Assembly (NCBI GenBank): GCA_963697165.1
Contig: CAVOMX010000006.1
Location: forward strand, 5,206 to 69,205
Origin: Candidatus Bathyarchaeota archaeon
GTDB taxonomy: Archaea; Thermoproteota; Bathyarchaeia; Bathyarchaeales; Bathyarchaeaceae
Reading direction: 5' to 3'
DNA length: 64,000 nt
Part shown: positions 5,140 through 63,804 of the stretch, piece after piece
How the letters are laid out: every line of letters begins with the position of its first letter
Position numbering within the stretch: the stretch's first letter is position 1
Made by a program: the position numbers and the translations under genes
The notes under the pieces: model-generated
The model's input: the letters and a program-made list of their open reading frames with translations, nothing else
Told to the model about the DNA's origin: nothing
Database searches by the model: none

Positions 5140-6240
5140 TTATCTTATGGCTTTACACATTTTCGTGTCTTTACAAAGAACCCTATGAATTGCCGTTTCA
5201 GCTATTTCTGATCCTATTTCAGCTATTCTTCGAGCCCCCCACAATAGGAAGCTTATTTGAGCGACGGCACAAGCTTCTATCGGTCTTTTACCCTTGAAAT
5301 ATTTGCTCACCGAGAAATTTTTTCCATGCAAATAAGCAGAACTACATATCCTTTCCTGCAACATCTCTTCCGTTTGCTGAATCTCAAGGTATGTCTCTAT
5401 TGCTTTATTTGCCAGTTGGATATCGCTGGAGAAGAAACTGTTTATTGCTTCATGGCATATTCCATAAGTTCGTTCGTTAATCTCAATTATTTTTTGAATT
5501 AATTCTTCTCCAATGATTTCCTTGGATTTGTTTAAAGCAATAATTTTTTCTGCGGTTTTATTTGCCCAATCAGCGATAAGCCGCAAATATTGGGCTATCA
5601 AGCGATACCAGATAATTAGAGATGGGTTGTCTATTTCCATCTGGCTGGCTATGCCTTTGTCTCGTTGGCAGCTATTTAATAAGCGAACTATTACCCAGAA
5701 CATTGTGTATGCTTCTTTATCTCTGCGTATTGCTTCGCCTGCAAGTTCCACATCTAAATTCGGTAGAGAATCTATCATTTCTCTGTGCATAGTAGAGCTG
5801 ATTATGAACAGTCTTCTAAGCAGAGTGTTTATGGGAAATTTTGTTGTATCAATAGAGCATTGGATCAGGAGCGAATTGGGTGTTTCCTCCATTATGCCCA
5901 TACCCATCAGTTCACGTGTGATGGTCCTGATTTTGTTTACCTGCTCGCTGCTCAGCCTGTTTGTTGAAACTATTTTTATGCTATCGTATCCAAGGGAATA
6001 GACACCCATTAGAGCCCTACCCAACATTTTGGGGTCTTTACAAAAATCTCCGTTCAATTCAACTGTTGAGTCTGGCTGTTTTTCTATTTGTCCTGGGGTC
6101 ATTATTTTAAGTATGTTGCCTTCATCTTCTTTAAAGAAGACAAGTTGTCCCTTTTTTAAACCAACTTCTTTTACCCATTCATTAGGAAGTGAAACAGCTA
6201 AACTAGAAGATCCTACGCGTTGAACTTTTCTGGATTCCAT
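5140..6240 (-). CDS. AbrB-PhoU family regulator
   Basis: N-terminal RKVQRVGSSSLAVSLP (AbrB-like) followed by two helical PhoU-like domains. Confidence 0.85.
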   Translation of the reverse strand: MESRKVQRVGSSSLAVSLPNEWVKEVGLKKGQLVFFKEDEGNILKIMTPGQIEKQPDSTVELNGDFCKDPKMLGRALMGVYSLGYDSIKIVSTNRLSSEQVNKIRTITRELMGMGIMEETPNSLLIQCSIDTTKFPINTLLRRLFIISSTMHREMIDSLPNLDVELAGEAIRRDKEAYTMFWVIVRLLNSCQRDKGIASQMEIDNPSLIIWYRLIAQYLRLIADWANKTAEKIIALNKSKEIIGEELIQKIIEINERTYGICHEAINSFFSSDIQLANKAIETYLEIQQTEEMLQERICSSAYLHGKNFSVSKYFKGKRPIEACAVAQISFLLWGARRIAEIGSEIAETAIHRVLCKDTKMCKAIR

Positions 6241-6353: not shown

Positions 6354-6893
6354 ATGTTCAAGAATATATCAATGTTAAAAACGGATCAAAATGATGCAGC
6401 CCAAAAAGAATACCTTTTCCAGTGCGAGGGGAAAACGGTTTGCGTTAAGACTAACAGAGACTACACAAAAACTCACATGTGGACAAAGAATACTCTTGAA
6501 GGAAATCAAAAAATTGGAATAACTGATTATGCTCAGCAGCATCTAAGGGAAAAAGTAGGTCTAGTAGAGATCTCCAAGAACACCACAGTTGGTGAAGATG
6601 TTGAGGTCGGAGAAGTCTTTGGCACTGTTTATGGAAGACCCTGTGCAGACCTTGACGAGATGCGATGTGAGTACGTTGCCTTTGATCTTATAGCCCCAAT
6701 TAGCGGCAAAATAGTTGACATCAACTGGCGAATAATGGAAACTCCTGATATCATAAACAATAGCCCTTACGATGAAGGGTGGATTGTAACTATTGCCCCT
6801 AAAAATAAGACTGACTTAAGCGAGCTCATCACCGCGAAGGCCTACAAAAAATTGCTTGAAAAACAGGAGAAATCTCCCTTCAGAGTCTTGTAA
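6354..6893 (+). CDS. Glycine cleavage H-like protein lacking the lipoyl lysine
   Basis: YTKTHMW, IGITDYAQ, APISGKIVDIN and INNSPYDEGWI are GcvH motifs; the ES-V-K hairpin is replaced by YGRPCADLDEMRCEY. Confidence 0.85.
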   Translation: MFKNISMLKTDQNDAAQKEYLFQCEGKTVCVKTNRDYTKTHMWTKNTLEGNQKIGITDYAQQHLREKVGLVEISKNTTVGEDVEVGEVFGTVYGRPCADLDEMRCEYVAFDLIAPISGKIVDINWRIMETPDIINNSPYDEGWIVTIAPKNKTDLSELITAKAYKKLLEKQEKSPFRVL

Positions 6894-6920: not shown

Positions 6921-7487
6921 ATGCAGAAATCTATAGTTCTTCCATCTACGGCAGAGAATGAACTGCGGCAGTTCATCTTTAAGACAACAACAGATGCTGC
7001 TCGGAAGGATTTGATTCAAGTGCTTCAAGCAGTTCAAGAAAGATACGGATATTTACCAAAAGAAAGCTTGCGAATGATTGCAATCAATCTGAGAGTCTCT
7101 TTTAGTGAAGTCTATGGTGTTGCCACTTTCTATCACCAATTCAGGCTTCAACCCCCTGGAATGTATGTGATCCAAGTGTGCATGGGAACTGGTTGCCATG
7201 CAAAAGGGAACGCCGACAACTTTGAGCACCTCAAATTGCTTCTTGATCTCAAGCCTGATCAATACATTACCAAAGACAAAGTTTTCAGTCTTGAATCAGC
7301 AAGATGCTTCGGATGTTGTAGTTTAGCACCTGTACTTGCGGTTACTGATAGCACTGGCAATTACCGGCGACTATACGGGAATGTTGACCAGAAGGTATTG
7401 AAGAAAATTTTAGCTGAATACAGAGAGAAAGCCAAACAAGAGGAGAGTGAACCAAAACGCGAAATAATAGTTTGCCCGAAGAGTTAA
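6921..7487 (+). CDS. NuoE/HydC-like [2Fe-2S] subunit
   Basis: VYGVATFY, VCMGTGC and RCFGCCSLAPV motifs. Confidence 0.92.
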   Translation: MQKSIVLPSTAENELRQFIFKTTTDAARKDLIQVLQAVQERYGYLPKESLRMIAINLRVSFSEVYGVATFYHQFRLQPPGMYVIQVCMGTGCHAKGNADNFEHLKLLLDLKPDQYITKDKVFSLESARCFGCCSLAPVLAVTDSTGNYRRLYGNVDQKVLKKILAEYREKAKQEESEPKREIIVCPKS

Positions 7488-9335
7488 TCTATGGCAAGAC
7501 AGGGTTTAAAATCAGAGTTCCCCTAGGTAGTTGCACAATTGCTGCGGGCGCTAACGAAGTTTTACAAAGTATAAATACAATTGTCAATTCAATGGGTTTG
7601 GATGTTGAGATAACTCCAGTAGGCTGTATGGGACTAGATTTCATTGATCCTTGGATTGAAATAACAAAGAAGGGCTATCCTTCCGCAATTTATGCTAATG
7701 TAACGCCAGACATTGTTGAACAAATTATTCGTGAATATTTAGATGAAAACTTCTCAAGCGCTTACGCATTCAGGTTCGGAAAAACCGTAGAAGAAAACGT
7801 TCCTTTACTAGATGAACTTGATGTGTGGAAGAATCAGGTCAGATGGATTTCTGGAAAATGCGGAATAATTAATCCCGAATCAATAGACGACTACACAACA
7901 GTTGGGGGCTATGAGGGCCTTAAAAAATGTTTGAGCATGAAACAGGAAGAAACAATAGAAGATCTAAAGAAAGCCAACCTCAGAGGTAGAGGCGGAGCAG
8001 GTTTTCCAACATGGATCAAATGGAACATATGCAAAGAACAGACAAACGACATAAAATACATAATTGCCAACTGTGATGAAGGTGACCCAGGCGCATTCAT
8101 GAATAGACTTCTGGCAGAATCAGACCCGCACAGAATCTTGGAAGGACTAATTATAGCAGGGTACACAATTGGGGCTCACAAGGGATTCATCTTTGTACGC
8201 GCAGAGAAACCTTTGGCTGCCAAACGGCTACTAAAAGCTGCTGAAGACGCAAGAGAGAAAGGTTTCCTAGGCGGAAACATTCTGGGCAGCGGTTACTGTT
8301 TTGACATAGAAGTTTTTCTGAGTGCTGGCGCTTTCGTTTGTGGCGAAGAAACCGCTATGATCGCTGCAATACAGGGCGAAAGAGCTACTCCTATCCAAAG
8401 ACCACCCTTTCCTGCCGTTAAAGGTCTATGGGGCATGCCTACAATAATCAACAATGTTGAAACACTCGCTCACGTGGCAACAATCATGACTGAAGGATGG
8501 GAAAAATTTGCCGCATTAGGAACTGAGAAAAGCAAAGGAACTAAGATGTACTGTGTCACTGGCTCTGTGAAAAGAACTGGAGCTTATGAAGTTCCAATTG
8601 GAACCCCAATAAAGAAGCTATTATATAATATAGCTGGAGGACCTCCCGAAGCTAGAAAAATCAAAGCTGTTCAGTTGGGTGGACCCAGCGGTGGCTGTAT
8701 TCCCGTAGACATGTTTGACTTACCCATGGATTATGACAGCCTCCAAAGTGCAGGAGCCATTATGGGCTCGGGCGGTATGGTGGTCCTGGATAACACAAAC
8801 TGTATGGTGGACATGGCTCGTTTCTTTCTTTCATTCACTACTGCTGAGTCCTGTGGTAAATGTTCTGTTGGACGTATAGGAACACGGCTAATGTATGAGA
8901 CATTGAAGCGGATCACTAATGGTGAAGGTACTGCTGATGACGTCGAATTATTGAAGGAAACCAGCGATGTCATTCAAAAAGCGAGTTTATGTGCACTAGG
9001 CAGAACAGCATCCAACCCAGTACCTGACAACACTTAGATACTTCGAGAAAGAATACGCTGATCACATCGAAGCTAAGAAATGCGAAGCAATGGTCTGTAA
9101 ACCACTTCTAACTTATCACATTAATTCTGAGAAATGCAAAGGCTGTCTAGTATGTGCCAAAAGCTGTCCTGTGCAGGCGATTTCAGGCGAGAAAGGCTCT
9201 ACACCCACAATAGATCAAACTAAATGTATCAAATGTGGAACTTGCGCAGTTAGCTGCCCCTTTGGTGTAATTGAAAATGTGCCTGGTAGACTTGTTGACC
9301 AGTCAGTAATACTTGAGGAGGGTTGCCGTAAATGA
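7472..9335 (+). CDS. NuoF/HydB-like FMN/NADH-binding subunit with C-terminal 2x[4Fe-4S] (frameshift near 9025)
   Basis: LRGRGGAGFP, DEGDPGAF, GAFVCGEETA; removing one C restores VLTTLRYFE..HIEAKKC and joins ferredoxin ORF 9090-9335. Confidence 0.9.
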
Positions 9336-9811
9336 TCTTTTCGAAAATTGAGCCCTATGAAGAAATAATTAAGAAACTGAATAAAAAAGAAGACAAGATA
9401 GCTATAATAAGCTGCAATACTTGTGCCCGAACCTGTGGAAATGGTGGACTAAACAAACTCAACGAGCTAGGTCTAAGATTGATACGTGATGGGTACTATG
9501 TGACCGATGAAGCTGTCGTATTATATGCTTGTTCAGAACCTATGCTCAGGGAAGCCAAGCTCGATCTGGAGGCTAACACAATTATTGTTCTTTCGTGTTC
9601 TGCAGGTTGGTCATGCTTTACGCGGAACTTTCCTGAAAAGAAAGTGTTGAAAGTCACAGAGGACATTGGCTTGGTTATGACTGACACGGACAATGAAATC
9701 TTCAAAGTTGTGATGCCCTACAAGAATCATGAATCCGAGATGGGAAAAGAGTACAGGATAAACACTGGAGAGCCCCTTGTTGGCGAAAAAATCAAAGTGA
9801 GGTGTGTCTAG
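9332..9811 (+). CDS. MetV-like N-terminal domain protein (Cys-rich)
   Basis: SCNTCARTCGNGG ... YAC ... VLSCSAG pattern resembles the N-terminus of the methylene-THF reductase partner MetV; no C-terminal Cys domain. Confidence 0.6.
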   Translation: MIFSKIEPYEEIIKKLNKKEDKIAIISCNTCARTCGNGGLNKLNELGLRLIRDGYYVTDEAVVLYACSEPMLREAKLDLEANTIIVLSCSAGWSCFTRNFPEKKVLKVTEDIGLVMTDTDNEIFKVVMPYKNHESEMGKEYRINTGEPLVGEKIKVRCV

Positions 9812-11011
9812 TTGATAATATCTGTTCGTTCATTATCATATGATCAACTTAAACGAAACTTAAATCCCGATGAAAAAATTATAATCTGGAGCTGCGATAC
9901 GTGTGTGAAGCACTGTGGCATCGCTGGAATGGAAAAGATGACTGCCCTAGAGGACTTGCTCAAGGAGGATGGCTACAATGTCCTTAAAAAGGAGCTTATC
10001 AGCGAATCTTGCCAGATCAACCTCGCTAAGAAACACAAGGCAACAGAAGAAGAAGTATTCAACGAAGCCACTGCAATAATTGTCCTCACATGCGAAATTG
10101 GCTATCAGTGCGTAAAAACTGTGTTTCCATACAAGAAGATTATTGGAACTGCGAAAACCTTCGGATCAGGAAACTTCAGCAACAAAAAAGGGCCAATCTT
10201 AACTTCACCTCTACCAACTACAGGTTTAGCCCTGGAACCAGAAGGTTACACTCTAAACAAGTTAGTGGAAGATTTCAATCTGTATCCCAAGTTCTTCGAT
10301 GCTGACAAAGTGCCTAACCCAGAAAAGATCACCATAACCGTAGATGGCAAACCTCTCGAAGTAAAGAAAGGCGGTAATTTGCTGGATGAGCTGGAGGCTA
10401 ATCGGATAAGAATCCCCCATCTGTGCTACGACTCCAGTTTAGGATCTATTGGAGCCTGCCGAATGTGTCTTGTAAAAATTGAAGGCAAAAGAGGCTTAAT
10501 CCCATCATGCTGCACTCAGATCGAAGAAGGTATGAACGTCACAACCGAAGATGAAGAGCTTGAGCGTCTTCGAAGGTCAGTACTGCAGATAATTATCGCT
10601 GAATGTGGAAATGAGATACAGCAAAGCAGAGACATCCGTTTCTGGATGCGTAGATACAAAATAACCGAAAACAGGTTCAGGCTCTCCAAAAAGGATCAAA
10701 TCGTCGACGACTCCAACGAGGTTCTTATCATGGACCCCAACCGCTGTATTCTTTGTGGAAGATGTGTTCGTGCCTGCGCTAATTTATCAGGTCAAAAAGT
10801 TATCAACTTCGCTTACAGAGGAAGCAACACTGTTGCAATCACTGGATTAAACGACGCTTTCGGTAACACCGATTGTGCACACTGTTTAGCATGTTCTCAC
10901 TACTGTCCAACAAATGCGATAACGCCTAAATCAGTCTCCAAGAAGATCTCAGGCTATCCATTCTGGACTCAAATTTCATATCCAAAGAAGATGGTACGCA
11001 CAAGCCAATAG
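9812..11011 (+). CDS. Fusion of a MetV-like domain and a NuoG/HydA N-terminal Fe-S domain
   Basis: SCDTCVKHC N-domain paralogous to 9332-9811; IPHLCY..GACRMCLV [2Fe-2S]; CILCGRCVRAC and CAHCLACSHYCP; no H-cluster or Mo domain. Confidence 0.75.
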   Translation: MIISVRSLSYDQLKRNLNPDEKIIIWSCDTCVKHCGIAGMEKMTALEDLLKEDGYNVLKKELISESCQINLAKKHKATEEEVFNEATAIIVLTCEIGYQCVKTVFPYKKIIGTAKTFGSGNFSNKKGPILTSPLPTTGLALEPEGYTLNKLVEDFNLYPKFFDADKVPNPEKITITVDGKPLEVKKGGNLLDELEANRIRIPHLCYDSSLGSIGACRMCLVKIEGKRGLIPSCCTQIEEGMNVTTEDEELERLRRSVLQIIIAECGNEIQQSRDIRFWMRRYKITENRFRLSKKDQIVDDSNEVLIMDPNRCILCGRCVRACANLSGQKVINFAYRGSNTVAITGLNDAFGNTDCAHCLACSHYCPTNAITPKSVSKKISGYPFWTQISYPKKMVRTSQ

Positions 11012-11098: not shown

Positions 11099-13031
11099 TT
11101 AGATTGTAAGTAGCCTGAAGGCTATTCCTCCAAGTAGAAGGGCTAGCGCGATTTCAAAAACAGTGATAAGTAATGCCTTCTTCCAGCCGAATTCTTTGAC
11201 CAATGCACCTATAGTCGCTACGCAGGGTATGTATAGCATTACCACTAGAGTGAAGACAATCATTTGAGCTTCAGTCATGACCAGAGCAAAGTTTGTGGTT
11301 CCCAACAGCGTAGCAAGCATTACCAACGTCAGTTCCTTTCTTAACACACCAAATATGAGAGCTATTCCCGTAACTGCTGGCAATCCAAGCCAAGTAACCG
11401 TTACGGGGCTAAATATGCTTGCGATTGGTTCTAACACGTTTGCAATCTCTGCAATTTTGATTACGAAGCTGCCCGCAATTATTAGCGGAAACGCCATTAC
11501 TATGAATTCTTGTAGTCTGAACCAAGTTTGCTTTGCAACCGTTTTCATGTGTGGTATTCTGTAGTCGTTCATCTCCATTATCAGTTCAGTTGGTTCGCCT
11601 GGAAGGGCTTTGAATGCTATCCTTCCGAGAACGAAGATTATGATTAGGTTTATGATGTAAAGCGCGAGCGCCCATTGGATCCCTACAAATGCCCCTACTA
11701 GTCCAAGGATGACGACTGATGTTGCAGCGCATGGTACGAGTGTAACAACAAATGCGGTTAAGAGTCTTTCACGGGTGGTCTCCATTATTCTGCATCCTAG
11801 ACACCCTGGAACATTGCAGCCGAAGCTGAGCATAACCGGAATGAATGCTTTTCCATGCAAACCCATTTTGTGCATTAAATTATCCATCAGAAAGGCAATT
11901 CGGCTCAGATACCCTGAATCTTCAAAGAGATACAACATGAAATAGAACGGAAGAATGTAAGGCAATGCAACTGTGACTCCGCCAATGATGCCTTCTATTG
12001 CTCCTCCCCAGACTAGTTCTCCAACGATTCCTGTTCCAAGAACACTGTCAAAAGCTTGGTTTCAAACCAAAAAAGAAGTCGCCTAAAAGAGCAGATGTGA
12101 AGTCCCCGAAACTGAATATTGCAACAAAAACGGATAGGATCGTCGTTAACATTATCGGATAACCGAAAACTCTGTGTGTTGTCGCAGTGTGCAGTTTTTC
12201 TCTCATGGGCATCTTCAGCGGCTTTGTTATCTCCTGAATTTCTTTCGAAATTCTGCTTGCCACTTCGTATATCTCAGACGTAACAACAGTTGGGCAGGAG
12301 TGACCATGAATCTGTTCAAGTTCTGCCCTAAGCTTTTCGGCAACTGCCACAATTTTTGGATTTGCTTCAAGAACCTCTTTTTCAACTTCTTTGTCTTCGT
12401 CTAGAAGTTTTATTGCAACCCATCTGGCGGGGTACCTCAACTGAGTTTTGTTAAGAAGTTTAACAAGTTTTTCAATTCTTTCTTCGATTTCTTTTCCGTA
12501 TCGTGGCTTCAGAGGGTCTATTTTTCTTTTTTTCTCGATAACTTCGATTGCTGTTTCCAGCATCTCATAGACGCCCTTTCCGCTGACTGCAACTGTTGGA
12601 ACAACTGGTACCCCTAGAATCTTCTCTGCCTTAGCATAATCAATAATAATGCCCTTTTTCTTTGCCATGTCAATCTGGTTTAAGGCTACTATAAGGGGGG
12701 TTTCCAGTTCCAGAAGCTGCAAAGTGAAGAACAGGTTTCTTTCAAGAAGCGAAGCGTCTACAACATTTATCACTAAATCGGGCTTTTCGGTTGCGATGTA
12801 CTCCCGTGAAATTAGCTCCTCCATGGAAAATGTTGACAACGAGTAGATTCCAGGCAAATCAACAAAGTCTATTGTGTAGCCTTTGAAATGTAGAGTTCCC
12901 TCAGCTTTTTCAACTGTTTTTCCGGGCCAGTTTCCGATATGCTGATGAAGGCCTGTTAATTGATTGAATATGACTGATTTTCCTACGTTTGCGTTTCCTG
13001 CCAAGGCAATTGTAAAATGGTTGTCGCTCAT
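11099..13031 (-). CDS. feoB: Ferrous iron transporter FeoB (frameshift near 12045)
   Basis: GNANVGKS, GNWPGKTVE and DLPG GTPase motifs; membrane part has FGCNVP and LYIPC. Confidence 0.93.
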
Positions 13032-52209: not shown

Positions 52210-53373
52210 TTACTTTCTTTTTCTGAAGATTTTGATTCCGTCTCTTTCTGTGACATACTCGAAACCTGCCATTAACAACTCTTCGTCTTGTTTTAAACTT
52301 TTAGATGTTGCGGTGTGATACTCGTCACTCTCAAAGTTCACAAAATGGGTGTAAATAAGTGTAGATGTTATGTTCCTGTGTCCAAGTCTCTCTTTAACAT
52401 GAAGAATGTTTTTTGTTTTGAAGTATTCCAATGAACCATAGAGATGTCGAAGAGTGTGAAAGGTGATTTTGTCTATTCGGGGATTCTGTAGTTTATTGGC
52501 TACATGTTTTCGTTGTTGCCTGAAGTTTTTTCTGAAATGTTTTAGTTGAGTATTTCCGAATATTTTCTCTCCTGTTTTCGGTAGCATATTAAGCATTGAA
52601 ATTAGTTTGCCTGATATCTTGAATTGACGTGGTAAACCATTTTTTTCAGGTTTGTTGATTGTTAGGATTCCTTTCTCCTGGTCAAAATCTATCCATGTTA
52701 ATTGCCATGCTTCTCCATACCTGCAACCTGTCTCGTTCAATAATTGAATGAATGTCGCAACTTTCCGACTACAACCGCCAATTAATGCCTCGATTTCTTT
52801 TGTTTGTGGTAGCCACGGTAATTTTTCTTGTTTTTTCCCCATGTTTCAAAGTTGATTTGTTCAGAAATCTGTATGTTACATATTTGGCAAAATGATTTGT
52901 AAGCAATTGCAGAGTTTTTTTTAGCTCCATCAGTCCAGTTCTTTTCTGTTACTGTTCTGGTTTTATGGCTGAATTTTTTGGCCTTGTTAATAATGTGAAA
53001 GACACTTTCAGGGTTTGTTAAGGTTGCTCCACGTTTTTGCAGTAACTTCAACACGTTTACTCGGTTTATGATTGTTTTAGGTTTCAGTCCTTTAAGAATC
53101 AGTTTTGCTTCATAGTTTACTAAATGTCCTTTTGTGGTCGATTCTCCCGCAGTCTGTTTTTCGTTTTGTTTTGACTGCGTCCAAGTTTTTCACTCTCTCT
53201 GTTTCGAGAGCGCATATTTGGCGACCACGTGTTATCTGGTAGTCTTTATAATATTTTTCATTGAAACGATAACCACAGCTTCGACAAAGATATCTTTGAA
53301 ACACCTTGCCCTGAACGTAACGTAGACCATCTTTCCAAATCATAGAGTTGGTACATTCAGGACAAACCAGCAT
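52210..53373 (-). CDS. Tyrosine recombinase/integrase with N-terminal Zn ribbon (two frameshifts)
   Basis: CPEC..CRSC; catalytic GCR, FHTLRH, LGH, TLIY; three ORF pieces join. Confidence 0.88.
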
Positions 53374-54276: not shown

Positions 54277-55272
54277 TTGAGTAATCTTAGATGTTTTATT
54301 AGTTATTCTTGGGATCACCAAAAACACAAAGATTGGGTTAGATTATTAGCAGAAGAATTAAGAAAAAACGGCGTAGATGCAAAATTAGATCAATGGGATT
54401 GCCAGCTCGGAATGGATTTGGCAAATTACATGGAAACTGGCATACGGGAATCCGATTTTGTTCTTTTGATATGTATCCCCATTTTTTGTGAGAAAGCTAA
54501 TTCTGGAACGGGTGGGGTTGGATATGAGAAATGTATTGTTACAGGTGAAATATTTCAGGGAACTGACCCTAGGAAGTTTATCCCAATTCTCCGTGAAGGT
54601 ACTCCAAAAGAATCCATGCCATCATACCTTAAATCAAAAGTTTACATAGATTTTCGAAACGATGGAGAATTTGATTCAAATTTGGAAGATTTATTGAGAC
54701 CGATTTATAAAAGTCCCAAATATGTTAGACCTCCACTTGGATTTAAACCACCTTTTAGTAATGATTCCCAACAATCTGGAATCAGTGGGAAAAAAGTTAA
54801 GATTTGGGATTTTAGAACATACCGACTAGTTTATGATTATGCTATTAGTTATTTTGGAATGAAGTTACTTCCAGAACAAGCAAGAGAGTTTGCCGACGAA
54901 TGGATGTTCAAACACTCGGATAGAAATTTTGAGGACTACAAACAGGTCTACGAGTATGCTGTCAGTTTTATTGGAATGAAATTACTTCCTTCAGCTGCGA
55001 GATTGTTTGCTGATAAATGGATGACTGAATACGCGGATAGAAATTTTGATGGCTACAAACAGGTCTACGAGTATGCTGTTGGCTATTTTGGAATGAAGTT
55101 ACTTCCAGAACAAGCAAGAGAGTTTGCTGACGAATGGATGTTCAAATATTCCAAGACAGATTTTGGTAATTTAAAACAGATCTACGAGTATGCTGTCAGT
55201 TCTATTGGAATGAAATTACTACCTTCAGATGCAAAAGAATTTGCTTTGGAAAAAATTAAAGAACAGATTTAA
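54277..55272 (+). CDS. TIR/SEFIR-domain protein with C-terminal ~39-aa repeats
   Basis: FISYSWD, LDQWD, GGVGYE; four YEYAV..GMKLLP repeats. Confidence 0.88.
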   Translation: MSNLRCFISYSWDHQKHKDWVRLLAEELRKNGVDAKLDQWDCQLGMDLANYMETGIRESDFVLLICIPIFCEKANSGTGGVGYEKCIVTGEIFQGTDPRKFIPILREGTPKESMPSYLKSKVYIDFRNDGEFDSNLEDLLRPIYKSPKYVRPPLGFKPPFSNDSQQSGISGKKVKIWDFRTYRLVYDYAISYFGMKLLPEQAREFADEWMFKHSDRNFEDYKQVYEYAVSFIGMKLLPSAARLFADKWMTEYADRNFDGYKQVYEYAVGYFGMKLLPEQAREFADEWMFKYSKTDFGNLKQIYEYAVSSIGMKLLPSDAKEFALEKIKEQI

Positions 55273-61012: not shown

Positions 61013-62029
61013 ATGGATCAACGCAAAATCATGTCTCTTGGAAGGTCCTCATTAGTTGTTTCTCTACCTAAACATTGGACGAAGCTGAACGAATTAAAGC
61101 AAGGTGACGTTGTTTCCTTAGCCATTCAACGTGATCGTTCCCTAGCAATTTTTCCTGGGATGGGAAGTAAAAAAGGTGCGAAAGAAACATCGTTACATAT
61201 AGATCCAAATGAAAAAGCTAGCACAATTAAGAGAAACATAATTTCAATTTATTTAAATGGATATACAAGCGTAATACTTTTTTCAAAGGGTATCTTTCCA
61301 GTTTTTCAACAGAAGGCAATACGTAACATAGTTCAGAGGCTTTATATGCGAATTATGGAATGCGATGCCAAGACCATGCATATTGTAAGTCTTATGGACG
61401 AAACAAAGGCCTCTGTACCTTCTGGTATACAACGGATGCATATACTTTCTAATTCGATGCTTCAAGAGGTTTTATCTTCCCTGGAAACTCAAGACCCCGA
61501 TTTGGCAAAAACAGCATTTCAATTAGAAGATGATGTCAACCATTTCTCTTATTTTATTCTCAGAACACTCCGAAGAGCAGCATTAGAGCCGGCATTTGCA
61601 AATAGCTTGGATTTAGAGATGACTGACTGCTTTGACTATCAGATGCTTGTTTATCGTATTAAACAAGTTGCTAACAGCACTAGTGACATAGCCAAGCACA
61701 TAGTAATGTTAAGTCAACAACAACTAAAAATCTCTGATCAACTAATAGAATTAATGCAACATGCTGGCAAAAACGCACACGAACTCTATACTCAAGCGTT
61801 CAAAGCTTATTTTTCAAACACTGTTGGCAAAGCTGAGGAATTGATTGAACGCGGAAAAATTGTAGTGAAATCAGATCAAGAAATTGCCACATGGGCTTTT
61901 TTACATGAAAAAAAGAATCCTGTTATTCTCTGTTCTACCTGTTCAATACGCGAGAACATAAAGAGTATTGCAGAATATGGAATTAAGATTGCAGTAACTA
62001 CTATCGATCGTTCCTTTAGCCCAAAATAG
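61013..62029 (+). CDS. AbrB-PhoU family regulator
   Basis: RKIMSLGRSSLVVSLPKHW followed by PhoU-like domains. Confidence 0.85.
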   Translation: MDQRKIMSLGRSSLVVSLPKHWTKLNELKQGDVVSLAIQRDRSLAIFPGMGSKKGAKETSLHIDPNEKASTIKRNIISIYLNGYTSVILFSKGIFPVFQQKAIRNIVQRLYMRIMECDAKTMHIVSLMDETKASVPSGIQRMHILSNSMLQEVLSSLETQDPDLAKTAFQLEDDVNHFSYFILRTLRRAALEPAFANSLDLEMTDCFDYQMLVYRIKQVANSTSDIAKHIVMLSQQQLKISDQLIELMQHAGKNAHELYTQAFKAYFSNTVGKAEELIERGKIVVKSDQEIATWAFLHEKKNPVILCSTCSIRENIKSIAEYGIKIAVTTIDRSFSPK

Positions 62030-62067: not shown

Positions 62068-63804
62068 TTATTTTTTATTGGGGAAGTTGAGGACTAACTC
62101 TAGTGCACTTGATTTTATTGTTTTCTGTTGTAGTTTTCTAGCTAGTTCCATCGCGAAGTTGTAGTTATATTGGCCTTTTCCTGTTCTTCGAACTTCTTTT
62201 AGCATTTCAATTTCTGTTTCATGTTTGAGTTGTCCTATCGCTAATGCACCAATTCCATAAATTCCTTGCGCGATTTCGCGCATATCATCGTGCGGTTTTA
62301 TGCCTTCAACTCCAAGTGGTGGAATGGCGTTTATGTCTGCTAAAACTTTTAGAAGCCTTACTTTTTGTAGCATATCTTTATCTATGATTTGAATTCCACG
62401 GGTTCCTGCACAGAATATTACTTCAGCTTTTTCGAAGAGCTCAAATTTTTTCTCAGCGTTAGGCGCGAAAAATCCTTTAACGTTTACTCCATATTTTGTG
62501 TTTATTTTTTCTGCAAGTTCTGCTGCATATTCATCGCCATTTTGTCTATTGGGATTCAAGCTCGCAATCGTAACATCAGACCCAAGTTTTGCTAACAAGA
62601 CAGAGATTATTCTTCCTACAGAACCTGTGCCGAAAACTGCACAAGTTTTATTGCCTAGATTTCCAAGGTTATTAGAAGATATTGCTTCTTCTACTTTGGC
62701 AACCGCTGCTGCTGCAGTTGTATATGCACCCGCTGGATCTATTACGACACTTGCGTTGAATGGGGCAAACATTGCTTTTGTTATTACATTTGCGGTTTCT
62801 TCTGCTTGATCAATGTCTTTTCCTCCAACGAAAAAGGTGGTTCGTTTTACTCCTTTTGGACCTCTTGAAAAAACTGCATCTTCAACTATAGTTTTGGCGT
62901 CTTTTGAGTTAACGTTTTCGTATGGTATTACTGCATCATATCCTGCGTCATATGCCATGCAAACGTCGAATGGGCTGGCTATTTTGTCTGAATCTAGGAA
63001 AAACAACAGGTAAGGTAATTCTATTGACTCTTTTTTAAGTGTTGGTTTTACTTTAATTTGCATAGCCTGTACTAGTTCATCTATGCTTTTCATTTGTGAC
63101 GCATCTTGGAAGGGTAAATTCACTTCCTTTGAAACTGTTATTGTTTCAACTGTGACGTTTAATTTTTCTAATAGTTTTGCTATTCCTTTTGAATGTTCAG
63201 GGCTACTAATGTGAATAGACATCAATTCTTTGTTTGAATTTATGTTTCTTGCTGTCTCTAAAATTTTCATAACAATCCATCTTTCTCTTACAGAGAAATT
63301 TACTTCATTTTCTTGTTTTTCTAGTTCACTCTGCAGATATTGGCCATATGCAATCATGTATTCTTCTTCAATACGGGACTCAGATTGTTTTTCTTTTTTC
63401 GTAAAACGAGCATTCAATTCTTTAATGATTTGATCTCTAAGTTGTTTCTTTTCATCTAATTGTTGAGCTATATATGATTTAGCATTTTCTTCGATATCAG
63501 CTGGGAATAAAGAAATGTTATTTTTACTAAAGACTGGTAATAGATTATTGTTATCGTTAAACTCTTCAATTGAACGCATGCCCAGCTCATCTGTAGCAAA
63601 ATTTGGTTTAACCTTTTTGATCAATTTTTCCAGAAAACCAGTGAAAGCAATAGATGGTTTCTGAAGTGCACTCAGTTCATTGTGAGGTTTGTTGGTAGGT
63701 TCTATCAACCCGAAGGGTTCATTATATTCTTTTTCAACTAATAGAACTGTTAATTTTTTGTCTTTTAATTGTTTCAGTTCCAATGACTCCATTTTTCTCA
63801 CCAA
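62068..63804 (-). CDS. NAD(P)-dependent methylene-H4MPT dehydrogenase (MtdA/B-like) fused to a ~260-aa N-terminal domain
   Basis: SPFDVCMAYDAGYD, FSRGP, DPAGAYTTAAA, GTGSVG, ADINAIPPLG and GIGALAIGQLK motifs. Confidence 0.82.
   Translation of the reverse strand: MVRKMESLELKQLKDKKLTVLLVEKEYNEPFGLIEPTNKPHNELSALQKPSIAFTGFLEKLIKKVKPNFATDELGMRSIEEFNDNNNLLPVFSKNNISLFPADIEENAKSYIAQQLDEKKQLRDQIIKELNARFTKKEKQSESRIEEEYMIAYGQYLQSELEKQENEVNFSVRERWIVMKILETARNINSNKELMSIHISSPEHSKGIAKLLEKLNVTVETITVSKEVNLPFQDASQMKSIDELVQAMQIKVKPTLKKESIELPYLLFFLDSDKIASPFDVCMAYDAGYDAVIPYENVNSKDAKTIVEDAVFSRGPKGVKRTTFFVGGKDIDQAEETANVITKAMFAPFNASVVIDPAGAYTTAAAAVAKVEEAISSNNLGNLGNKTCAVFGTGSVGRIISVLLAKLGSDVTIASLNPNRQNGDEYAAELAEKINTKYGVNVKGFFAPNAEKKFELFEKAEVIFCAGTRGIQIIDKDMLQKVRLLKVLADINAIPPLGVEGIKPHDDMREIAQGIYGIGALAIGQLKHETEIEMLKEVRRTGKGQYNYNFAMELARKLQQKTIKSSALELVLNFPNKK

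Follow-up and report, generated by a model that had tools for sequence, protein, structure and literature searches.

A lysine-less H-protein paralog heads a Bfu-like operon with MetV-like domains in Bathyarchaeia

H-proteins are swinging-arm carriers defined by one lipoylated lysine, and the question raised here is what a protein of this fold does when that lysine is missing. Such a protein is encoded in a Candidatus Bathyarchaeota archaeon (GenBank assembly GCA_963697165.1) by the forward-strand gene at positions 6354 to 6893 of a 64,000-nucleotide stretch of contig CAVOMX010000006.1 (positions 5,206 to 69,205), which was analysed as a whole and is called the window below. The gene is the first of an operon, and its product of 179 amino acids is referred to as the H-like protein. 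An earlier note on this DNA had seen in it a GcvH-like protein with two cysteines in place of the lipoyl-lysine, and had proposed a genetically encoded dithiol or metal carrier for the downstream oxidoreductase. In this work, the observation itself was confirmed: the open reading frame is a lysine-less H-protein-fold gene. As to its role, we tentatively favour the possibility that the H-like protein is a derived, non-lipoylatable paralog which serves as a dedicated partner subunit of a Bfu-like enzyme, docked via a hairpin finger and its tails.

The fold of the H-like protein is that of an H-protein. The Pfam family GCV_H (PF01597) was matched with an E-value of 2.6e-23 and 82.7 bits against a cut-off of 22.2, and the protein shares with GcvH (PF01597, TIGR00527) the motifs H-x-W, GITDYAQ, and PYxxGWI at 32–41% identity, with an hhalign probability of 99.95%. 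An AlphaFold2 model built on an alignment of 40 family sequences (mean predicted local distance difference test, pLDDT, 69.4) gave 22 Foldseek matches in the PDB at E ≤ 0.001, all of which were H-proteins, the best being 1onl_A (E 2e-10). The NCBIfam GcvH models were not reached (NF002270, 95.8 bits vs 117; TIGR00527, 74 vs 115.85), and the protein also stayed under the cut-offs of GcvH_rel_desulf NF045810 (35.1 vs 150) and not_gcvH TIGR03077 (34.5 vs 144.05). Nothing usable was returned by the ESM Atlas when PF01597 clusters were excluded (top score 0.79). The differences from GcvH are the loss of the lipoyl-lysine, an insertion of 11 residues, an N-terminal extension, a C-terminal tail, and an operon partner of the NuoEF type rather than GcvT/GcvP. 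The extension (residues 20–31, YLFQCEGKTVCV, positions 6411–6446) is family-specific, holds C24 and C30, and was modelled as a β-hairpin at low confidence (block pLDDT 52–55). The tail SPFRVL (positions 6873–6890) is likewise family-specific; it occurs as SPFR[VI][LVI] or near variants throughout the family, including the divergent members P0209, P0224, L014, and L085. In the alignments, both additions were absent from canonical GcvH.

The decisive change lies in the peptide GEVFGTVYGRPCADLDEMRCEYVAFDLIAPISG, quoted in the earlier note, which corresponds to residues 86–118. The canonical E-S-V-K turn is missing and no lysine occurs between residues 76 and 118, the closest ones flanking the hairpin being K75 and K119. 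The lipoyl-lysine turn is replaced by an elongated hairpin (residues 93–107, YGRPCADLDEMRCEY, positions 6630–6674), which carries the 11-residue insertion, found in all four kinds of alignment, with C97 (codon 6642–6644) and C105 (codon 6666–6668) in a C-x7-C spacing. The aligners disagreed on the residue opposite the canonical lysine, which was Y107 by MAFFT alignment A1 and by phmmer against 1onl, R104 by phmmer against the E. coli H-protein, and P96 by MAFFT alignment A4 and by hhalign; in none of them was it a lysine. Thus, the loss of the ES-V-K-A hairpin and the insertion with two cysteines, both noted earlier, were borne out. Conservation was followed in a set of 81 different family members, fragments included, which was compiled before the ortholog of genome G117 turned up. 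They have the insertion in common. The hairpin held no lysine in 74 of the 81, and in the remaining 7 a single lysine was found at varying places. Because the hairpin has no conserved lysine, the H-like protein is not a lipoyl carrier of the usual kind, and, as judged from its sequence, cannot be one. The lipoate independence proposed before therefore stood as far as usual lipoyl carriage is concerned.

The lysine-less proteins form a small, well-supported, and rare family. A word-index search returned 56 clusters at 54–92% identity and then dropped to lysine-bearing GcvH at ≤43%, and an exhaustive hidden Markov model search of 1.84 billion representative proteins gave 6272 matches at E ≤ 1e-3, only 8 of which reached E ≤ 1e-30. 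In a maximum-likelihood tree of 22 family and 50 canonical rows, whose bootstrap had not fully settled, the family made up one side of a branch with a long stem (ultrafast bootstrap 99, SH-aLRT 92), and the genome's own lysine-bearing GcvH was placed in another clade. The species-level scan, in which each of 185,579 species was represented by a single genome, found 12 family loci and missed that of G117. Among the 80 loci listed from a metagenome scan with a 10-sequence alignment, 3 were family members and the rest were lysine-bearing GcvH. The named genome records with family members belong to Bathyarchaeia/Bathyarchaeum, plus one labelled Baldrarchaeota. Purifying selection on the gene was shown by whole-gene ratios of nonsynonymous to synonymous rates (dN/dS) of 0.10–0.20 in three of four pairwise comparisons, dS being saturated in the fourth; in the hairpin, dN was 0.014–0.058 vs a dS of 0.22–1.34. 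Furthermore, the gene was covered by contigs of three RNA libraries from three studies, one of which matched positions 6385–6535 with zero differences. This coverage is consistent with transcription, although DNA carry-over is possible in those libraries. The literature yielded neither a lysine-less archaeal H-protein nor an H-protein in a NuoEF/Bfu operon, while the supplements on Bfu and B. tardum could list the cluster; judged by its sequence, an H-protein variant without the lipoyl-lysine is apparently new, and we did not find this form described before. Tandem arrangements were also observed. At L010 (7282–8243), two lysine-less H-like copies, 59% and 44% identical to that of the window, follow each other, the contig ending within the second. 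P0210 (417 aa) and P0213 (226 aa) carry tandem lysine-less GcvH-like domains with hairpins of canonical length (GVVEDWLSTHDLYSP, GVVETWMFMFDLYSP); P0210 has two, each preceded by a stretch which resembles ribbon-helix-helix by eye, and is a lysine-less type different from the H-like family.

The linkage of the H-like gene to a Bfu-like operon with MetV-like domains is near-obligate. A NuoE gene came next in 14 of the 15 loci with readable downstream DNA, down to 44–47% identity (the window, L003–L007, L009, L011–L013, L083–L085, and L193), the exception being L014. Two loci fell outside this count, L010, with its second tandem copy and the contig end, and L008, which ends inside the gene. Beside canonical lysine-bearing GcvH, no NuoE/NuoF was found among the matches listed (77 loci, L086–L162). 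The linkage to a nuoEF oxidoreductase that had been claimed for this gene was thereby upheld, and its almost constant place before NuoE, and not near canonical GcvH, supports the view of the H-like protein as a dedicated partner.

Four genes follow on the same strand, and all junctions of the operon are tight or overlapping. The first (6921–7487), beginning 27 nucleotides past the H-like stop codon, encodes a NuoE/HoxE-like thioredoxin-like [2Fe-2S] subunit (PF01257, E 1.2e-39), which stays below all NCBIfam equivalog cut-offs. The second (7472–9335) encodes a NuoF-like flavin mononucleotide/[4Fe-4S] subunit with a C-terminal 2x[4Fe-4S] ferredoxin domain (PF01512, PF10589, PF10531 (SLBB), and Fer4). 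The third (9332–9811) encodes U159, a Cys-rich protein of 159 residues with invariant C28, C31, C35, C67, and C89, which is related to the N-terminal domain of MetV. The fourth (9812–11011) encodes a 399-aa fusion of a second U159-like domain (about residues 1–120; 34% identity to U159, BLASTP E 2e-16) to a HoxU/NuoG-N-terminal-like [2Fe-2S] and [4Fe-4S] module, with matches to PF13510 and Fer4 families and matches to HoxU and to the FeFe-hydrogenase A6 N-terminus under cut-off; Pfam and NCBIfam scans found no H-cluster, pterin, or FrhB domain in it. In the window, NuoF is cut into frames 7472–9037 and 9090–9335 by a one-nucleotide insertion near 9023 (within 9015–9035). Its orthologs are single frames of 591–625 aa with the ferredoxin domain fused, and contigs of runs X5, X1, and X18 do not have the extra base. 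FeoB (11099–13031) is also split into two frames, its orthologs being single at 643–644 aa, and the assembly probably carries indel errors.

The operon resembles BfuABC/HydABC, whose layout of NuoE, NuoF-ferredoxin, and HoxU is described in PMC9304861, in having a NuoE-like subunit, a NuoF-like subunit with C-terminal 2x[4Fe-4S], and a HoxU-like subunit with an extra domain. It differs from Bfu in that two MetV-N-like domains make up the extra module, to which the H-like protein is added. The main text of PMC9304861, supplements apart, does not mention GcvH, glycine cleavage, lipoyl, MetV, or methylene. A second NuoE/NuoF cluster on contig 17 of the same genome, G000 (L194, 5045–8894), has a HoxU-like subunit fused to FrhB, which is the F420-Bfu layout as given in that paper, and contains no H-like gene. 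Therefore, it is the MetV-like module, not NuoEF generally, that the H-like protein accompanies. The N-terminal ~130 residues of the operon NuoF have only two cysteines and no PF01257 match, while the contig 17 paralog matches PF01257. It has also been considered that the operon is a detached NADH-input (N) module of a membrane Nuo/Hfo-like complex with the H-like protein as its accessory subunit. The B. tardum genome paper, in the portion considered here, treats the cluster WGM89840-42 as NuoEFG, a possible NADH module, and does not mention GcvH (PMC10477458), and the present genome does hold a NuoCD-like gene on another contig. However, the N-terminal domain of NuoF is HydB/Bfu-like and its C-terminus carries a di-cluster domain, the supposed NuoG is short, HoxU-like, and joined to a MetV-like domain, and the U159 cluster, looked for at ≥50% U159 identity in 301 sampled genomes of the class, was present in just two, G000 and G117, a figure that concerns the cluster alone. 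We consider this reading improbable. It concerns the operon, is compatible with a partner-subunit role of the H-like protein, with which it overlaps, and does not add to the other three readings weighed here.

The assignment of the extra module to MetV relies on its N-terminal part. The first ~95 residues of U159 match residues 1–94 of the MetV encoded beside MetF in L089 (BLASTP E 4e-8), and the N-domain of the 399-aa protein matches the N-terminal ~95 residues of a MetV as well. U159 has no Pfam or NCBIfam family match. Its AlphaFold2 model (pLDDT 90.8) has a Rossmann-like fold, for which Foldseek gave no PDB match at E ≤ 0.001, and a wide VIA-align search gave only generic Rossmann-like or periplasmic-binding-protein folds (Z up to 9.9). 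An Atlas lead from U159 to PF12225 was weak only (score 0.80, 14% of members). The difference from MetV is that the C-terminal Cys-rich 'NGPCGG' domain of PF12225 is absent, no match to it being found in U159 or in the N-domain of the 399-aa protein even at E ≤ 10. MetV binds [4Fe-4S] clusters, and RnfC2 of Acetobacterium woodii joins a MetV domain to an RnfC/NuoF-like one (PMC8515935). MetV, the Fe-S subunit of MetFV methylene-tetrahydrofolate reductases, is comparable to the module here in working with NuoF/RnfC-like NADH modules. The same source notes NuoEFG-metFV clusters, as well as gcvH and lpdA adjoining metVF in acetogen Wood-Ljungdahl clusters, where a coupling is unproven (PMC8515935). 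H-protein and MetV/MetF genes adjoin each other in L089 (6950–9149) too, where a canonical GcvH and the MetV-MetF pair are transcribed divergently; among proteins with a name, the N-terminal domain of this MetV comes nearest to U159. A function of the operon as methylene-tetrahydrofolate reductase was rejected, as no MetF or PF12225 match was found in the genome, which is 81% complete. Stand-alone U159-like proteins of 112–148 aa and 35–38% identity, without NuoEF neighbours, were found at L165–L170 (G160, G199, G187, G283, G139, and G290); two of these genomes belong to the same genus, in which at least five other high-quality genomes (G090, G098, G148, G202, and G262) gave no U159 match. The context of the stand-alone genes of 128–137 aa in related genomes was uninformative.

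The cysteines of the hairpin were then central to the choice between a structural and a redox role. Counted over window residues 92–109, 64 of the 81 sequences had two cysteines, whose positions varied, 13 had a single one, and 4 had none (P0050, P0051, P0224, and the fragment P0217). C97 was kept in 56, every one of them in the Bathyarchaeum-type clade, and is Y, H, F, R, or K elsewhere; C105 was kept in 69, with W, Y, T, F, or L as substitutes; position 107 was Tyr in 62 and Cys in 15. The best-kept cysteine was C24 (73 of 81), followed by C105, and C30 of the extension (60 of 81) is a feature of the Bathyarchaeum clade. The pattern of that clade is C97/C105/Y107, and a second group (L009, L011, L013, and L084) with the same NuoEF context has Y97/C105/C107. 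A single cysteine is left at 105 in P0042, P0046, P0047, and L083, the last of which has Y97/C105/Y107 in the same NuoEF context, and at 107 in L010, P0207, P0209, P0212, L085, and G117, among which L085 and G117 also keep that context. At positions 97, 105, and 107, Cys thus alternates with Tyr, Trp, Phe, or His, like buried or packing positions. The near-invariant residues of the hairpin are all other than Cys, namely Y93 (79 of 81), E106 and F110 (78 each), A98 (77), D111 (76), and L100 (74), with D101, M103, and R104 at 71 each. The C97-bearing clade is nested within the family tree and C97 is therefore derived. The C97-x7-C105 pair would then be a clade-specific decoration rather than the functional core, and the C-x7-C dithiol carrier suggested by the earlier note failed on the cysteine conservation by which it was to be judged, since the cysteines vary among homologs and such a dithiol is not a family feature. 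An exchange of Cys and Tyr between 97 and 107, as a contact or a Cys-Tyr crosslink, was rejected; it is one clade-level event, and in the model, where DSSP pairs the strand 97–99 with 104–107, the two residues do not oppose each other.

With the strongest constraint of the hairpin on residues other than Cys, a role as partner subunit is supported over a role of C97. We hypothesize that the four genes that follow encode one enzyme, of which the H-like protein would most likely be an accessory subunit in stoichiometric amount. This enzyme would be a soluble NADH-linked iron-sulfur flavoprotein of HydABC/Bfu architecture, probably with a ferredoxin link, and its third module would be a pair of MetV-N-terminal-like Cys-rich domains instead of a hydrogenase, formate dehydrogenase, or FrhB. 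In the H-like protein, the lipoyl-lysine turn may have given way to a rigid, elongated β-hairpin "finger", which together with the new N-terminal hairpin and the SPFRVL tail would hold the protein on the complex, with the MetV-like module as the probable docking site. We infer the physical binding, the subunit contacted, the dependence on ferredoxin or bifurcation, and the non-redox role of the finger. Carrier folds act as fixed parts in mitochondrial complex I, in the form of acyl carrier protein, and in RnfC and NqrA, as barrel-sandwich N-domains. With the H-like protein these may share, as a conceptual parallel only, a carrier fold built into a redox complex.

Several points weigh against a purely structural partner. 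Most sequences keep a Cys at 105 or 107 and C24 is present in 73 of 81, which exceeds a purely structural need. Since no catalytic domain for binding a substrate can be recognised in the enzyme, the H-like protein could itself be a substrate. The confidence of its AlphaFold2 model is only moderate, and no fused forms of the protein were seen among longer proteins at E ≤ 1e-5, the latter being weak evidence. Moreover, in L014 (731–3151), the H-like gene is not followed by NuoEF. Here, a divergent lysine-less protein of 40% identity, with an extra N-terminal insertion and a hairpin with C104, is accompanied by a DUF2096_N protein and then an ortholog of Nox/CoADR-like flavoproteins, which take the place of NuoEF; this ortholog is 55–64% identical to those linked to GcvH. 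It is a single locus, but none hints more clearly that the lysine-less protein may itself serve as a redox substrate or partner.

The GcvH-linked flavoproteins concern the genome's lysine-bearing GcvH (TLESVKAVSDL), which is encoded on contig 12 (L001, G000:C12:91475-94792) and is adjoined by genes for a radical-SAM protein, a thioredoxin, and a Nox/CoADR-like flavoprotein. A BPL/LplA-family match lies ~10 kb away, and neither GcvT (PF01571) nor GcvP (PF02347) was found in the genome at its 81% completeness. A Nox/CoADR-like gene was located just downstream of lysine-bearing GcvH in at least seven loci (L001, L127, L132, L142, L144, L157, and L161), at 1–21 nucleotides in six and at ~730 nucleotides in L001. 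Together with the missing GcvT and GcvP matches, this suggests that the GcvH of contig 12 and the Nox/CoADR protein are a lipoyl-protein redox pair outside glycine cleavage.

Such pairing is relevant to an alternative in which the H-like protein is a protein-thiol carrier. Lipoamide would be replaced by C24 and by C105 or C107, which are located at the base of the finger, with C97 and C30 as additional thiols in the Bathyarchaeum clade. The protein would cycle between dithiol and disulfide, or bear a persulfide or mixed disulfide, and would serve the Bfu-like enzyme as a shuttle or third substrate, with its reduction or oxidation taking place at the MetV-like Fe-S module. The characterised relatives of H-proteins (GcvH, LbpA, and the GcvH-like OsmC donors) are, as treated in bioRxiv 10.64898/2026.10.01.755906, all carriers for oxidoreductases; LbpA serves the sHdr sulfur-oxidation system, and two further conserved cysteines form a pair close to its ends (bioRxiv 10.64898/2026.10.01.755906). 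Like the H-like protein, LbpA and the OsmC donors are H-protein relatives that work for an oxidoreductase other than glycine cleavage. According to the same source, GcvH, LbpA, and the GcvH-like proteins are lipoylation substrates, and GcvH and LbpA have a strictly conserved lysine; the lysine that LbpA keeps is absent from the H-like protein. No Hdr-family domains were found among the operon proteins or the other scanned frames of the window, to which that search was limited. The frequencies of C24 (73 of 81), C105 (69), and C107 (15), and the 64 sequences with two hairpin cysteines, fit the thiol carrier, and the deep branches P0209, L085, P0207/L010b, P0208, and G117 all bear C107. Both family-specific additions hold conserved cysteines, both H-protein paralogs of the lineage adjoin NAD(P)H flavoenzymes, with L014 pairing the lysine-less form with a Nox/CoADR ortholog, and the operon has no other recognisable substrate site. 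However, no cysteine is invariant, since P0050, P0051, and P0224 have none in the hairpin, L011, P0055, and P0209 do not have C24, and L014 has C104 and C29 instead. The cysteine positions shift among clades and alternate with aromatics, any of them is less conserved than the near-invariant non-Cys hairpin residues, and C97 and C105 would lie on opposite faces, to judge from the modelled strands 97–99 and 104–107. A thiol carrier in this broad sense appears to us rather unlikely, if worth keeping in view. Its more definite form, a lipoate-free H-protein in which the thiols of C105 or C107 with C24 stand in for the lipoyl-lysine and which is the third redox substrate of a possibly bifurcating enzyme, seems to us distinctly unlikely. 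If true, lipoamide would here have a genetically encoded substitute, which might alternatively be a sulfur or electron shuttle of a previously undescribed Bfu-type enzyme with a pair of MetV-like Fe-S domains as the catalytic module.

A further possibility is suggested by the gene on the other side. A putative regulator with AbrB/MazE-type DNA-binding and PhoU domains (PF04014, E 2.4e-8; PF01895, E 1e-10) is encoded at 5140–6240 on the reverse strand, divergent from the operon, and its ortholog lies upstream of the H-like gene in all 12 genome loci (L003–L014), in L084, and, on the same strand, in L193. The regulator gene is therefore linked as tightly as NuoE, and the H-like protein could be placed outside the mature enzyme, either as a regulatory or ligand-sensing partner of the AbrB/PhoU protein or as a factor of Fe-S maturation or assembly. 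In P0210 and P0213, lysine-less GcvH-like domains stand behind N-termini that look like ribbon-helix-helix by eye, and in L014 the regulator is still found with the H-like gene while NuoEF is missing. On the other hand, the H-like gene is co-directional with NuoE at a distance of 27 nucleotides and divergent from the regulator except in one locus, and the protein has no DNA-binding or known sensor motif. We regard a regulatory or assembly role as doubtful, and very much so. A sigma-70 promoter scan gave 10 sites vs 9.6 expected, a consensus inapplicable to an archaeon.

The significance of the locus is that a conserved, selected, and apparently transcribed lineage of H-proteins has given up the lysine, remade the arm in the form of a protein hairpin, and seems to have joined an NADH/ferredoxin-type iron-sulfur enzyme. 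Two outcomes are possible, a carrier fold turned into a fixed subunit or protein thiols replacing lipoamide, and either one offers an entry point to an uncharacterised redox enzyme of Bathyarchaeia, relatives labelled Bathyarchaeum among them. To our knowledge, Bathyarchaeum is the only genus of Bathyarchaeia with a cultivated member. The literature presently reads the same cluster simply as "NuoEFG/Hox". The family is rare, with 12 loci in the species scan plus G117, and its general reach is therefore limited.

Elsewhere in the window, a second PhoU-domain protein is encoded at 61013–62029 beside a 578-aa protein (62068–63804) with an Mpt_N domain, which is the N-terminal domain of methylene-tetrahydromethanopterin dehydrogenase. 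This pairing of a PhoU gene and a redox-enzyme gene echoes that of the AbrB/PhoU regulator and the H-like operon. Finally, a phage-integrase-family gene (52210–52842) lies near a gene with a TIR/SEFIR domain (54277–55272), possibly marking a small mobile or defence island.

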